From: Candidatus Kapaibacterium sp. | Lineage (GTDB): Bacteria > Bacteroidota > Ignavibacteria > Kapaibacteriales > UBA2268 | DNA: 64,000 bases | Direction of reading: 5' to 3' | Assembly (NCBI GenBank): GCA_963665665.1 | Contig: OY762428.1 | Span: forward strand, 3,904,001-3,968,000 | Part shown: piece by piece, positions 42,001-48,000 of the stretch | Layout of the letters: each line of letters begins with the position of its first letter | Position numbering within the stretch: position 1 is the stretch's first letter | Position numbers: made by a program

Positions 42001-45000
42001 ACCGGCTCCGGTAACAAACCGACTTTTCAAATTGGCGACCGTGTAGTTGCAGATGAGAAAGCATACAACAACAAGAAACCTGATTATGGCGATATTGTTG
42101 CCTTTTCAAGGCCTGACGGAAAGATATGGTTTTTTAGAATTGTAGGGCTTCCATTTGATATGATTGATTTAAATGATAATAATGTGTGTATTAACGGCAA
42201 GCCCGGTAAGGAAAAATTTATTTCGGAGACGAAAAGTGATGGCGTTCCGGTTCTTGAATTTGAAGAAGAGCTTCCAAACGGGCACAAATACCTGATCTAC
42301 AAAATGAAATATCCTTATGACAGTTCAAAAGCAAATATAAAACAAATCTTTGTGCCTCATGGAAGTTATTATGTAATGGGAGACAATCGTAACAGATCAT
42401 TAGATAGCAGGCATATTGGTTTCATAGATGAAGATAGTATCATAGGGCGCATTATTTATACTTATTGGGGAGACTCATTCGACAGAATAAATATTGATTT
42501 CAGAAACAAATAATATTTGCTGTTAAACTTATAATCCGGCCATCAACCTGGTCGATATGAAATATGATTTAACTTTTACGAACTGATAAAAGCCCGCGGC
42601 CTTTACTACGCCATGGCTTCCGAACAGCTGGGCGGCGAAGATTGAGTGGTCGGGTTATTTCTCGTTCAATTCAAAATTATCCAGGAATTTCTGCAGGAAG
42701 TAATTATCTTCAAAATCATCATCGGGGCACAATATCTGCAAAATATATATTTTATTTCCATTTTCAACTGACAGGGTATACTCGTATAATTCATTTTCCC
42801 TTTCAATAATAACTTCCCGTGCCGGGTATTTATCATGAAATAAAATTTCATCTTCATCATCAATTTTATTATCAGTGCCGGCAATTTTTGTTTTTTGGAT
42901 AAACTGGTCAATCATCGGGTCAGGGTTTGTACCGTCGGGCATGCCGATGGAAGTTATATAATAAGCTTTATTATTATCGCCCTTTATAGGAACCGAAGCA
43001 TGATTATAGAAGAATACATCACCGCCTATGCTTTTCCGGTTTTCTGTTTCTTCAGGAGCTGTCGGAAACAAAGCTGAAAATCCCGCAGGAATAAAATCAA
43101 ATTTCTCCCATTTCACGAAATCCCTTCCTGTCAGTTCAAGTTCCTCATCGTATCCCACGGACCTGACGGCGTAGCCTTTCATTTTCAAAATATTCAGAAT
43201 TCCCTCATCCCCGGCAAGGTGTGCTGCCCCGACAACTGCAAAGCATGGCATTTTTTGGGATAGCTCGTCTATTCTCTCAGCCATTTTCCTGTTTCTTTTT
43301 CCAAGCAAAACTGATGACATCTCGCTGCCAGTTCTGGATTTTATAATCCTTTCATGCAGGCCGCCAATATCCTCATCAATGTAGTACTCCAGGTTTGCTT
43401 CGGATTCCTCAAGGTAATTGTCAGGGTTTTTAAAGAAATTATAATAGAATGACATTGGTATTTTATCAATAGTACCAATCTGATCGCCCAATTCTTCAAG
43501 GCCCTCAATTATCAGTCCCTTCTCCTCTGCTTTTAACTTCAGAAATCCATCTATAGTTTCCGGAAAATCGCTTTTCTGTATAACCTTGCGAATAAAATTA
43601 TAAACAGCAAAAAGCCTGAATTGGCCGAACAGGTCAGGCTCCTTTTTAAGATATTTTTTAATTGCCGCTGCCATTGGATTATAAATAGAATCGGGGAGAA
43701 TATTGATCAGCCTCTCGTTATTATCAAGATACATCGCACGCCCGGCAGCATCCGTTTCCTCGTCGCTTAGGCTAAGTTCCGGTGAAAACACTTTACATTT
43801 TCCAAGGCAAATCAGAACAGAATCGCCAAATTCAAAAGCCCTTTTATCCTTCACGTGCATACTGCCGAATACATAAGATTTGTGGTTTTGGTTTTCCTTC
43901 GAAATTTCCCAGAGCAGAGAGTTCTCAATTTCATCAGATAATAACAATCCTGAAGAAAAAATAATCAGTACGAATATTGTTTTGAAAAGTTGATTCATGT
44001 AATTCAATTTTATAATTTCTAATTTCAAATTTCCTGATCAATAGAATTTAGTATTTATAAGCCCTGCCAATCAATTGAAATCAGGGTGCTTAGTGTACTT
44101 TAATTCAGAATTCTTTTTTTAAATATAATCCTGCAATATTTATATCTCAATTATTATCAAATTTTAGTATTAGTAACATACAAAATCATACAATATTTCA
44201 TACAAATTTAACAAAAGGAAAGAAAAAAGTATAATAATTTGGGTTAAATATTGGCCATCGTATTGTTTTAAAGGAATAATCTTTTTTAGCCTGTGCCCTG
44301 AAGGTGACAGAAACAGATTATTCAAAAATATTCAGCCTGTCCGGCAATGGATAGTCTTTGTGCAAGTTTATCTAAATTATAACTACCACAGCTTATCAGT
44401 ATTTCGTATCTTTGTACTTTCCGAAAATTTGAAAAACGTATGAATTGAAAATAGATAAAATGAAGCAGATCAAGATATTTTGAAAGGATTTTAAATGGCA
44501 AAGTTTCAGTTTAAGCCGTTCGAGGAAATGACCGAAGACGATTACAGGGAGATCGGCTTTAAATCCGGGCTGGAAGTGCATCAGCAGCTTCTTACCGAGA
44601 AAAAACTATTCTGCCGCTGTCCTGCAGGCAGGTACTCCAAAGAATATAACGCGGAAATTCTCCGCCACATGAGGCCCACGCTTTCCGAGCTTGGCGAATA
44701 TGACGGCACAGCCCTCATGGAATTTAAAACAAAGAAAAATATTACTTACAGAATTAACCGCGAAACAGTATGTACCTACGAAATGGACGATACACCGCCT
44801 TTCGAAATAAATGAACAGGCTTTGGACATCGCTTTTGAAATTGGTATGCTGCTTGACGCAACGCTGGTGGACGAGCTTCATATTGCCAGGAAGCAGTATC
44901 TGGACGGATCAATTCCTACAGGGTTTCAGCGTACAGCTATTACATGCGTTAACGGTGAAGTTCCTTACAAAGACAGAATTATTCACATTATTCAGATGTC

Positions 45001-48000
45001 GATAGAAGAGGACTCATGCCGTGAAGCTTCTGATTTGGGCCATGAGAGAATTTATCTGACCGACCGGCTTGGAACTCCCCTGATTGAAACGGTTACTGCT
45101 CCTGAAATGAAAACACCTCAGGAAGTTGCCGAAGTAAACCAGATATTGCGTAAGCTGGTACGTTCAACAGGGCACGTTCGTACTGGTATTGGCGCCGGCC
45201 GCCAGGATGTTAACGTCAGCGTTACAGGTGGAACAAGAATCGAGATCAAGGGCGTTTCAAGAATTCCTTATATTCCACGCCTGACTTATAACGAAGCAAT
45301 GAGGCAGTGGAACCTGTTATTGCTCAGGGATGAACTTCATTCCCGCGGAATTACGGAAGAAACTTTCAAAGCTGATTATACTGACGTAACAAAAGCACTT
45401 AAGAAAACTCTTTACAAACCTGTTCACCAGGCTATTGCAGATGGTAAAACAGTTAACTGCGTAGCGCTGAAAGGATATAAAGGACTTCTTAACTGGCAAA
45501 CACAGACAGATACTTATTTCTCGAAGGAAATATCCGACAGGGTAAGGGTGATTGCATGTATTTCTGAAATACCAAACATTCTTCATTCGGATACCCCGAT
45601 GGACTCCATTTCCACAGCCGAATGGCAAAAGCTCAGGAAACAGATGGAAGCCGATGAAAATGATACTCTCGTTTTGGTTTGGGGATGCCCGGGCGATGCA
45701 GAGACAGGCGCTAAAGAAATTATTATCCGCGCTAAGGAAGCAACAATTGGTATTCCTTCGGAAACCAGGCAGGCTCTGAGGGACGGAACAAATGGCTTTG
45801 AACGTATACTGCCGGGCCCGGAAAGAATGTATCCGGATACCGACCTTCCGCCAAAACGCATAACAGAAGACAGAAAAGCAAGACTCAGGGAAGGACTCCC
45901 GAAATATTTCTGGGACAACATGAAATGGTATTACGAACTCGGTATTCCTGAAGATACAATCGAGCCTCTCTCCTATTCAAAATATGCTCCTCTGTTCGAA
46001 AAACTTGTGAAAGAGCACGAAGTCAGCCCGGTTCTTGCTGCCGTGGTATTAGTTCAAAATATCAAGCGACTGAAAAAACAGGGACTGGATATATTGAAAC
46101 TGACCGACGACATCCTTGAAAATATTTTAATCCTGAATAAAGACGGCCTGCTGCCGGCGGATGCCATTCTTTTTGCAATGCGGGATGCTGTTAAAACAGG
46201 AAAATTTGACAAGGAAATGATCCCCGAAGCAATAAAAGAAGATCAGCTTGAAAAAGAATTTGGCGCAGCTGACAGGAAATTCGGCGACATGGAGATAATC
46301 AATCCGCAAAGCAAACACAAAATCATGGCAGGAATAATGATGGAAGGGCTTCGCTACAGGATTGAAGCAGCTAAAGTTAATGAATTTTTGAAAAATAAAC
46401 TGAACGGGGAGGGCTGATATGTCTGTAAGTGAAGATTATAAAGGCTACTGGGGCAAAGTGCTCGAAACCCTGCAAAAATTTGAAGCAAAAGTATGGAGCG
46501 ACGTTGAAATATTTACTAATGCGGATGACCACTATATCGGCCTTATTCTGCCACGTTCCGAAACTGCTGACGACCTGCACGTTGTTTTGAAGCTTCGTAC
46601 CGGATATAATGTTGGCATAGCAGTTGAAAAAATTACTGATATTAAAATAAACGGCCGTAAGATTGCCAATTATAAAATTCCGGAACAGGAATTCCCGACA
46701 GATCCTGTGAAACCGAGAGTAAAACTTTTCGGTACCGGCGGAACTATTGCCAGCCGCCTGGACTATCGTACAGGCGCGGTTATACCGGCATTCTCGCCCG
46801 GCGAACTTTATGGTTCGGTGCCGGAACTTGCAGATTATTGCAACCTTGAAACAGAAAAATTATACGGCGTTTTCAGCGAGAATATGGGCCCGGACCAGTG
46901 GAAAGGTACTGCCGAAGCCATTGCAGCCGAAATTGAAAAAGGCGTGCAGGGAATTGTTATCGGGCATGGGACAGATACAATGCACCATACCGCTGCAATT
47001 CTTTCATTCATGATCCAGAACTCGCCGGTTCCTATCGTGATGGTAGGTTCGCAGCGTTCCAGCGACAGGCCGTCGTCCGATGCCGCGCTAAACCTGATCC
47101 ACTCGATAAAAACAGCCTCCGAGTCCGATATAGCTGAAGTAATGGTTTGCATGTTCGGCCCGACTTCAGACACTTACGGCCTGCTGCACCGCGGTACAAG
47201 AGTTAGGAAAATGCACTCCAGCTACCGTTCTACTTTCCGTACAATCGGCGATATTCCTATCGCAATGGTTGACAAGGAAAACATCACACCCATAAGGAAT
47301 GACTACAAACGCAGAAGGCACGACAAAGACTTTATTCTGAAGCCTTATTTCGAGGAAAAAGTAGGGATTCTCTATTATTATCCCAACATGCAGCCTGATA
47401 TGGTGGACATGATGATTGATAATGGCTATAAAGGTATCGTATTTGCCGGAACAGGACTCGGCCATGTGAACAAACCGCTTTACGCAGCGCTGAAACGCGC
47501 TCAGGACAAGGGTGTTGCTGTTTACATGACTGTTCAGACCCTCTGGGGTTACGTGCAGATGTACGTTTACGAAACAGGGCGCGAAATGATGGAACTCGGC
47601 GTTGTGCCTACAGCCAACATGCTTCCCGAAGTTGCTTACATGAAACTTGCATGGGCGCTCGGCCAAACCGACGACCTTGAGAAAGTAAAAGATATAATGC
47701 TCACTCCGGTTGCAGGAGAAATAACCGAACGCGAACCGAGCAACGGTTACCTGATATACCAGGGCGGCATTCCCGAAGTGGAAGAATTTATTTCCAAATA
47801 CAGGAAATAACAAAAACCGCCATATATTTATACTCATCCGATGATTTCTTTCGTCGGGTGAGTTTTTTTATTATTCAACAGCTCGAAACATTAATACCGT
47901 ACTTCCGCGTAAAAACCTAAGAATTAGTAAAAGCGCTGGCGTTTGCAAATTGTCATCCGCCTGTCCCGACTCGTCGGGGCCGTCGGGTGACATGGCGGTA

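Follow-up and report, generated by a model that had tools for sequence, protein, structure and literature searches.

The stretch of DNA analysed here (the window) comprises 64,000 nucleotides of contig OY762428.1 (positions 3,904,001 to 3,968,000) from Candidatus Kapaibacterium sp., and it raises the question of what an archaeal-type Glu-tRNA(Gln) amidotransferase, GatDE, would do in a bacterium that also encodes GlnRS. GatDE is described as exclusively archaeal in passages of PMC2811023 (2009) and PMC9499178 (2022); the wording that the initial annotation quoted from the review PMC2330236, "archaeal signature protein", is present in that text, as is the recognition of A1-U72 by archaeal GatDE. 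In the literature searched, no account of bacterial GatDE was found.

The locus consists of two genes and two flanking signals, at the following positions of the window:

44208-44235, forward strand: promoter-like site, TTAACA, 16 nt, TATAAT (consensus scan, 11 of 12 matches; pattern only)
44495-46417, forward strand: gatE, 640 aa, predicted tRNA-dependent kinase/transamidase subunit (NF003107, TIGR00134, Pfam, PDB)
46419-47810, forward strand: gatD, 463 aa, predicted asparaginase-type glutaminase subunit (TIGR02153, NF003217, Pfam, PDB)
47832-47873, forward strand: terminator-like hairpin (13 pairs), then a T run (pattern scan and sequence)

The TGA stop codon of gatE is separated from the ATG of gatD by one base, and the two genes form an intact unit that encodes a true GatDE pair. 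The hairpin begins 22 nt past the gatD stop codon, and the promoter-like site lies about 260 nt upstream of gatE, within the 466-nt gap that follows a divergent TraB-family gene; the scan used the sigma-70 consensus, from which the promoters of the host phylum may differ.

The scores that had identified the pair by curated archaeal-type models, and the archaeal GatE and GatD structures named as its closest relatives, were reproduced. GatE reaches 523 bits on NF003107 (cut-off 456), covering profile positions 2-625 of 630, and 438.8 bits on TIGR00134 (cut-off 319.55), and GatD reaches 509.6 bits on both TIGR02153 (cut-off 324) and NF003217 (cut-off 310). The best relative of GatE in the PDB is 1zq1_C (E = 1.2e-96), followed by 2d6f_C (2.3e-89), and that of GatD is 1zq1_A (5.1e-119). 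GatB_N spans residues 24-459 of GatE, and nested within it, at residues 312-398, is the AspRS-like insertion (GAD; 24.7 bits, cut-off 23.4), which is not found in GatB; GatD is composed of GatD_N, Asparaginase, and Asparaginase_C domains. The GatE motifs GLE.HQQ, EEDS.R, RQDVN.S, and EIKG align to 1zq1_C, and the residues within the GatE and GatD motifs that are referred to here as catalytic are those that we take to be so. In GatDE, the tRNA D-loop is bound by a YqeY-like C-terminal tail of GatE. The NF003107 match of host GatE extends almost to the end of the profile, and GatB_Yqey, which many relatives carry, has no match in the host protein at E <= 0.001; the tail motif is RYRIEA in the host and RGR.DG in the consensus of the bacterial clade. 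GatB models were observed to match GatE as well, at 95-130 bits.

As the initial annotation had listed, the host genome also encodes GlnRS (756.5 bits), AsnRS (498.8 bits), GatB, and a GatA-like protein. GatB is over its cut-offs (442.8 bits against 314.8 for TIGR00133; 484.1 against 338 for NF004012), and the GatA-like protein is under its own (471.9 and 471.4 bits against 481.1), GatA still being by far its best family (next, 261 bits). The two genes form a scattered second set rather than one cluster, and GatC was not found in a six-frame search of the host genome (best E 0.145 for TIGR00135 and 0.62 for PF02686, both within a 573-aa frame), with no match at the gatA-like or gatB locus in those searches, though a very divergent GatC may be present. 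The only small neighbours of the gatA-like gene may, by their appearance, be TatA/TatB. The YqeY fusion is the best-scoring model for host GlnRS (826 bits), but the 573-aa frame of this GlnRS contains no YqeY domain; the idea that GlnRS needs a YqeY domain in trans found no support, as the frames in genomes with GlnRS only fall in the same range of 534-577 aa.

Since GlnRS and AsnRS are both present, the indirect route is formally unnecessary in the host, and it is conceivable that GatDE acts outside bulk translation, making the amidated aminoacyl-tRNA that some tRNA-dependent product requires, or serving as a regulator or sensor of the supply of glutamine or asparagine. The complete direct pathway, the near-absence of genomes in which GatDE would be the sole route, and a peptidase-C39/ABC exporter 4-8 kb upstream of gatED in the window are consistent with such a role. 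However, three unrelated genes, of which one is divergent, lie between the exporter and gatED, and the exporter was not seen at other loci; in 125 loci from many phyla, gatE is followed by gatD 108 times, and any other neighbour recurs at 10 loci at most. As the canonical catalytic motifs are also all kept, a role outside bulk translation appears unlikely. The initial annotation had argued for a role other than, or redundant with, canonical Gln-tRNA synthesis; the overlap with GlnRS stands, and no sign of a non-canonical role was found.

GatE is no rarity. Of 301 genomes of the class Ignavibacteria, 61 have a GatE over the cut-off and 240 have none, and, when one genome per genus was taken in the host's own family, UBA2268, it was over the cut-off in 22 of 31 genera, with fragments in two more (24 of 31), so that GatDE is the majority state in this family. 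The claim that GatE is missing from all 16 of the remaining family and order genomes is not upheld: among the 11 further members of the host's family in the class sample, 4 have it, and it is absent from the 27 genomes of other families of the order. "Patchily kept" is thus an understatement. Beyond the class, at least 596 stretches among one-genome-per-species contigs encode a GatE relative, and the best 80 of these at least 596 all have bacterial titles, from about 10 phyla. Bacterial GatDE is a large branch, usually found beside GlnRS and often in place of GatCAB.

GlnRS usually accompanies GatDE, be it in the class (57 of 61 genomes), in the family (23 of 24 genera), or in other phyla (12 of 16 genomes), which bears out the earlier observation that the two travel together and means that the overlap with the direct pathway is real. 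The four class genomes with GatE and without GlnRS are G012 (98% complete, with GatB), G164 (96%), G237 (74%), and G216 (79%). GatDE as the sole route was considered for G333 and G335, in which no GlnRS, GatA, or GatB was found, but the chance loss of GlnRS from a metagenome-assembled genome (MAG) suffices to explain them, and a missing GlnRS in 1-2 of the 16 other-phylum MAGs is at the level expected by chance. Nor do GlnRS and GatDE behave as one module: glnS adjoins gatED only in L112, L124, and G065; on a GlnRS tree of 41 rows, the presence of GatE requires 12 changes, where shuffled labels require 13.3 on average (three rows with a wrong ORF being left out of account); and Aminicenantes GlnRS does not nest within the class, unlike Aminicenantes GatE.

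GatDE and GatCAB tend to exclude each other in the class once GlnRS is present. GatB is absent from 28 of the 61 GatE-bearing class genomes and, by a proxy, from about 17 of the 24 GatE-bearing family genomes, and the situation of the host, with GatDE beside GatCAB-like genes, is a minority state. All five family genera that lack GatE and GlnRS but have a route carry GatB. Where GatE and GatB occur together (the host, most of family f9, f27, and f20), the GatB score is low, with 442.8 bits in the host against 573-628 bits among the best 150 class GatB matches. Of the 301 class genomes, 292 encode AsnRS, among them all 28 that have GatE without GatB, which rules out that GatDE makes up for the lack of an AsnRS.

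Phylogenetic analysis places all 33 bacterial GatE rows in one clade, the nearest neighbour of which, in an unrooted tree, is a cluster with a Heimdallarchaeota-named member; an AU test does not reject a single clade of archaeal GatE (p 0.64), and the tree constrained in this way is 10.3 log-likelihood units better. Host GatE shares 31-40% identity with representatives of the closest non-bacterial clusters. Within the class, 46 of 46 GatE rows form one clade, on which the family labels need 11 changes, the minimum being 10. As GatDE is the majority state in the family and the tree follows families, the sequences point to descent with loss within the class, and the host gatE-gatD pair is proposed to belong to an old bacterial lineage of the enzyme.

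Strong conservation is evident in both subunits. The median identity of host GatE to those of 14 other family genera is 64.0%, and that of the essential GluRS is 63.2%. All 91 full-length bacterial GatD rows share the motifs TGGTIASR, HGTD, SDRPSSDA, RVRKMH, and GTGLGH without change (the first G of GTGGTIASR is kept in 90 of 91), and an alignment of 32 rows from distant bacterial relatives shows no variation in the catalytic columns of GatE. A redundant remnant of an old transfer, kept by chance and on its way out, would fit the overlap with GlnRS, the loss of GatE from many lineages and its absence from most class genomes, and the in-frame stops found in 5 of the 61 class copies. It is nevertheless very improbable in view of a GatE whose conservation across 14 genera matches that of GluRS, an invariant GatD active site, a presence in 24 of 31 family genera, and a GatE tree that tracks families.

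The tRNA substrate had been put forward as an argument against canonical function. Both host tRNAGln genes (UUG and CUG) were re-read in the sequence and carry G73 and, as the initial annotation had stated, U1-A72 rather than the A1-U72 pair read by the studied archaeal GatDE. The argument drawn from this is weak, because the loop of GatE aligned to the 3_10 turn with which GatB reads the first pair carries a clade-specific signature common to all 33 bacterial rows: V-R-T-G-x-G-A-A/G/T-R, against V-K/R-R-G-L/I-G-T/S-I/V/L-R in archaeal GatE (as aligned by HMMER, the GatB turn exceeds the GatE loop by two residues). In addition, one GatDE MAG in which no GlnRS, GatA, or GatB was found has a U1-A72 tRNAGln. 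The A1-U72 pair is a property of the studied archaeal enzymes and not of the protein family as such; the tRNAGln of one GatDE MAG, G333, has it. We infer that host GatDE accepts U1-A72 tRNAGln. The CUG-type tRNAGln, a second kind with a eukaryote- or archaea-like D-arm, was considered as a companion of GatDE. It is found in 23 of 24 GatE-bearing family genomes against 2 of 7 without GatE, but occurs class-wide in 168 of 301 genomes, including the GatCAB-only families f7 (20 of 21) and f21 (11 of 12), and is absent from all 23 genomes of f19, 11 of which carry GatE.

A further possibility is that GatDE, on replacing a dual-specific GatCAB, inherited its asparagine task and amidates Asp-tRNA(Asn), alone or in addition to the glutamine substrate. 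Host tRNAAsn shares U1-A72 with tRNAGln, the pair used by bacterial GatCAB for both according to a passage of PMC2330236, and the remodelled first-pair loop and the replacement of GatB by GatDE in 28 of 61 class genomes would be compatible with such a shift. Against this, AsnRS is almost universal in the class and present wherever GatE occurs without GatB, the host encodes two AsnB-type asparagine synthetases (509 and 493 bits), nothing points to a non-discriminating AspRS, and the studied GatDE is specific for Glu-tRNAGln in the account given in PMC2811023, which together make the shift to asparagine unlikely.

The supply of Glu-tRNAGln would depend on GluRS, of which each of the 31 family genomes encodes one. 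No fixed residue differences separate the GluRS of the five GatCAB-only genomes, which must be non-discriminating, from those of the 22 genomes with GlnRS and GatDE. Thermus Arg358 is uninformative as a marker of a discriminating GluRS, Arg being found in 30 of 30 family GluRS, including those of GatCAB-only genomes. Speaking against such a supply, about 20 class genomes have GlnRS as their only route, which means that a GluRS of this class is able to turn discriminating.

The reading preferred here, with a probability of roughly 0.55, is that GatDE is a functional heterodimeric Glu-tRNAGln amidotransferase of the archaeal type, which works in parallel with GlnRS and has to a large extent taken the place of GatCAB. 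GluRS would place some glutamate on tRNAGln, GatD would free ammonia from glutamine or asparagine, and GatE would phosphorylate the tRNA-bound glutamate and amidate it to glutamine. In the host, this indirect route would operate alongside GlnRS, providing Gln-tRNAGln from a second source or clearing away Glu-tRNAGln; within most of the family, GatDE would have taken over from GatCAB, and the host, with its GatB and GatA-like proteins and no detectable GatC, may represent an intermediate. A more far-reaching proposal, to which we give somewhat less than even odds, is that a single old bacterial GatDE lineage, with Asgard (Heimdallarchaeota-type) GatE as its nearest relatives, spread over about 10 bacterial phyla and became, together with GlnRS, the standard replacement of GatCAB in several of them, the remodelled loop allowing GatDE to amidate the U1-A72 Glu-tRNAGln made by a still non-discriminating GluRS.

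Reviews up to 2022 state, in the passages cited above, that GatDE is restricted to archaea, and scenarios such as GatDE in LUCA, a joint evolution of GatDE and archaeal tRNAGln, and the lack of GlnRS in archaea have been built on that basis. A conserved, widespread bacterial GatDE clade living with GlnRS and bacterial-type tRNAGln contradicts this distribution. If the proposal is true, GatDE is no archaeal signature, and how Gln-tRNA formation evolved, with GatDE in LUCA or through a later transfer, becomes testable with bacterial data. The clade also provides a natural experiment on how an amidotransferase re-tunes the way it recognises the first base pair, and on how one Gln-tRNA route, direct or indirect, comes to take the place of the other. 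For metabolic inference from annotation in these phyla, the absence of GatCAB together with the presence of GlnRS does not imply that the indirect route is gone.

Compared with archaeal GatDE (2d6f of Methanothermobacter thermautotrophicus and 1zq1 of Pyrococcus abyssi), the host pair has the same two subunits, domain order, and motifs, over the equivalog cut-offs, with a GatE composed of a cradle, an AspRS-like insertion, and a tail; it differs in residing in a bacterium with GlnRS, the tRNAGln of which carries U1-A72 rather than A1-U72. Bacterial GatCAB performs the same overall reaction, and GatE and GatB are paralogues, but GatCAB has three subunits with the amidase-type GatA, whereas GatDE has two with the asparaginase-type GatD. 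In Deinococcus, Thermus, and Bdellovibrio, GatCAB is kept for tRNA-dependent asparagine synthesis. These bacteria, which have GlnRS and AsnRS, resemble the host in that direct synthetases coexist with an amidotransferase, as described in PMC4206432 and PMC3927822; in the host, the amidotransferase is instead GatDE, and AsnB-type genes are present.

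The two genes of the unit lie on the same strand, with one base between the stop codon of gatE and the start of gatD:

44495–46417, forward strand, gatE, open reading frame of 640 aa
46419–47810, forward strand, gatD, open reading frame of 463 aa

Both products exceed the cut-offs of curated profiles, GatE with 523 bits on NF003107 (cut-off 456) and 438.8 on TIGR00134 (319.55), and GatD with 509.6 bits on both TIGR02153 (cut-off 324) and NF003217 (310). According to Pfam, GatE carries a GatB_N domain with an inserted GAD domain, and GatD carries GatD_N and two asparaginase domains. 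The closest solved structures are the archaeal GatDE complexes of Pyrococcus (1.2e-96 for GatE, 5.1e-119 for GatD) and Methanothermobacter (2.3e-89 and 1.5e-116), and the identification of the pair in the initial annotation is upheld. Pattern matching places a candidate promoter site in the 466-nt gap upstream of gatE; 3' of gatD it finds a hairpin of 13 pairs and then a run of T, a putative terminator-like element by pattern only. The flanking genes are unrelated to the pair and encode a signal-peptidase-like protein, a TraB-family protein, and proteins with T9SS tails.

Two further groups of genes in the window were observed:

36335–40815, forward strand, HlyD-family gene followed by a gene for a 1023-aa ABC exporter
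48312–55300, forward strand, five tandem paralogous genes (419–422 aa)

The exporter combines a peptidase C39 domain with two N-terminal cyclic-nucleotide-binding domains, an uncommon regulatory extra for a bacteriocin-type exporter. Each tandem paralogue has a signal-peptide-like N-terminus and the C-termini are near-identical in all five; for the first of them, Pfam confirmed the T9SS sorting domain Por_Secre_tail. Long identical stretches shared by some copies suggest that duplication or gene conversion took place recently.

The genome is a single contig (C1) of 5.46 Mb, is 99.5% complete, and encodes the following related enzymes:

C1:1981159–1982736 (locus L001), glnS, GlnRS, 756.5 bits
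C1:1509619–1510929, asnS, AsnRS, 498.8 bits
GluRS, single copy, 562.6 bits
AspRS, 769.8 bits
AsnB-type, two genes, 509 and 493 bits
GatB, 442.8 bits
GatA-like, 471.9 bits (cut-off 481.1)

GlnRS, AsnRS, GatB, and a GatA-like gene below its cut-off had all been reported, and the scores given there were recovered. GatA is by far the best family of the GatA-like gene even so, and the GatB score compares with 573–628 bits for the 150 best GatB matches in the class. GatC had been left unsearched; two profiles run against all six frames of the genome found none. ARAGORN predicts 52 tRNAs, and both tRNAGln genes (UUG and CUG) have U1–A72, as previously described, together with G73. Among the models, GlnRS scores best on NF011291, which describes a GlnRS/YqeY fusion protein, with 826 bits over profile positions 33–558 of 769; its open frame, just 573 aa long, lacks the YqeY portion. 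In base composition, gatE (GC3 0.44), gatD (0.49), glnS (0.57), and asnS (0.53) are GC3-rich outliers in this genome of 38.6% GC, ranking between the 84th and 99th percentiles among 3008 long open reading frames. The values for gltX, gatB, the GatA-like gene, and EF-Tu are 0.33 to 0.39, and high GC3 is no marker of highly expressed genes here.

Within the class, GatE exceeds the cut-off in 61 of 301 genomes, spread over 11 of 28 families, with fragments in two more. The earlier statement that GatE is absent from the 16 other genomes of the family and order holds for the rest of the order (0 of 27 genomes in the class sample) and fails for the family, where 4 of 11 other genomes have it; with one family genome per genus, the count is 22 of 31, plus fragments in two. 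Over 120 clusters with 62 to 70% identity were listed in a protein search, and their sources label them as GatE from MAGs of Ignavibacteria, Kapabacteria, Bacteroidota, or the FCB group; bacterial GatE is already annotated in databases, as had been pointed out. A distant-relative profile matched at least 599 stretches in a one-genome-per-species collection, at least 596 of which encode a relative. The best 80 of these all carry bacterial record titles, which for automated assemblies may be wrong, and include Myxococcota, Aminicenantes, Phycisphaerae and Planctomycetota, Krumholzibacteriota, Neomarinimicrobiota, Cloacimonetes, Fermentibacteria, Aegiribacteria, Calditrichota, Fibrobacteraceae, and the Ignavibacteria/Kapabacteria/Chlorobiota group. 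At 108 of 125 loci gatE is followed by gatD; a contig end cuts 10 of the other 17, and the remaining seven lack gatD over 1.5 kb or more of downstream sequence (L156, L128, and L136 of Planctomycetota, L167, L159, L105, and L039). No other neighbour was seen in more than 10 of the 125 loci. The gene glnS directly adjoins gatE–gatD in a Myxococcota MAG (L112), a Bacteroidetes MAG (L124), and a further genome (G065:C45:508058-512933), and is far from the pair elsewhere.

GlnRS is present in 156 of the 301 class genomes, comprising 57 of the 61 with GatE and about 99 of the 240 others; the four GatE-bearing exceptions are G012 (98% complete), G164 (96%), G237 (74%), and G216 (79%). Among the 24 family genera with GatE, GlnRS occurs in 23, and a single genus has GlnRS without GatE; in other phyla, GlnRS occurs in 12 of 16 GatE-bearing genomes, one of the 12 being a contig-edge fragment. 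GatB is found in 250 of the 301 class genomes, yet in just 33 of the 61 with GatE, in 8 of the 16 from other phyla, and in about 7 of the 24 family genera, as judged by a proxy (weak GatE-model matches in frames of about 480 aa). AsnRS is present in 292 of 301 class genomes and in all 28 that have GatE and lack GatB. Because related genomes are not independent, these counts are patterns rather than statistics; the pattern is repeated in several families (f1, f5, f9, f18, f19, and f22), and genomes with only GlnRS or only GatDE are rare.

The simplest account, to which we assign a probability slightly above one half (roughly 0.55), is that the pair would be a functional Glu-tRNAGln amidotransferase working beside GlnRS, GatCAB having been replaced across much of the lineage. 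GatDE may then serve to clean up Glu-tRNAGln, and the present genome would represent an intermediate state in the replacement, with a low GatB score, a GatA-like gene just short of its threshold, and no GatC match from the two profiles. GatE is conserved to the same degree as GluRS (median identity to 14 other genera 64.0% and 63.2%), and the GatD motifs are unchanged in 91 of 91 bacterial rows. Sequence does not tell a discriminating from a non-discriminating GluRS here: all 30 family GluRS examined have Arg at the Arg358 marker position, and no fixed residue difference separates five GluRS of GatCAB-only genomes from 22 of genomes with GlnRS and GatDE, which is compatible with an unchanged specificity but is weak evidence. 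In E. coli, a non-discriminating GluRS is toxic when expressed, and an amidotransferase relieves the toxicity.

In a FastTree phylogeny for GatE with 159 rows, one clade holds all 46 class rows (support 100) and the family labels require 11 changes against a minimum of 10, which indicates inheritance accompanied by losses and not repeated acquisition. Some GatE rows lie inside the class clade although they are titled Aminicenantes, Rhodothermaceae, or Chlorobiota, reflecting either inter-phylum transfers or loose labels. The GatE of two Aminicenantes MAGs (L149, L158) are among them, and the GlnRS of one (G328) falls outside the class, suggesting that gatED alone moved between phyla. An IQ-TREE phylogeny (70 rows, few of them named, LG+G4, SH-aLRT, six GatB as outgroup) recovered all 33 bacterial GatE as a single clade (100), beside which (99) stands P0162, whose cluster includes a Heimdallarchaeota-named member, followed by rows with the names Thor- and Odinarchaeota; the opposite side holds rows named Thermoprotei, Ignisphaera, Thermoplasmatota, and Parvarchaeota. 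The AU test does not reject all archaeal rows as one group (p 0.64), and the tree so constrained was better by 10.3 log-likelihood units, so that acquisition from an Asgard-like archaeon is a lead rather than a result.

GlnRS, GatA, and GatB were not found in two GatE-bearing MAGs, G335 and G333; both may be incomplete, so that the tRNA evidence from them is a lead only. The tRNAGln of G335 has U1–A72 and lies beside the end of gltX, in a context that is typically bacterial as judged by eye. G333, titled Rhodothermaceae and possibly incomplete or contaminated, has a tRNAGln(UUG) with the archaeal-type A1–U72 pair (L190:1475-1546, forward strand), which by eye adjoins a UvrA-like protein.

GatDE is described as archaeal only in the accessible text of PMC2330236 (2008), where the wording cited by the initial annotation is present, and in that of PMC2811023 (2009) and PMC9499178 (2022). 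Subscription journals aside, none of the listed GatDE papers since 2013 has bacterial GatDE as its subject by title and abstract start, and the term GatDE is missing from the listed matches of a search that combined the enzyme with Ignavibacteri-, Kapabacteria, and Melioribacter. According to the accessible text of PMC2811023, a 3_10 turn of GatB reads U1–A72, and GatE has a short, conserved, positively charged loop instead. In a HMMER alignment, this turn in S. aureus GatB (K183–E186) is matched by V-R-T-G of the GatE described here, which is two residues shorter. The loop reads V-K/R-R-G-L/I-G-T/S-I/V/L-R in 31 archaeal rows (Arg in 29, the hydrophobic residue in 30) and V-R-T/R-G-x-G-A-A/G/T-R in 33 bacterial rows (Thr in 23, Arg in 10, the hydrophobic residue in none). 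Among these aligned rows the change is clade-specific, lies where contact with the first pair would be expected, and would fit, rather than prove, an altered readout of that pair by the bacterial enzyme.
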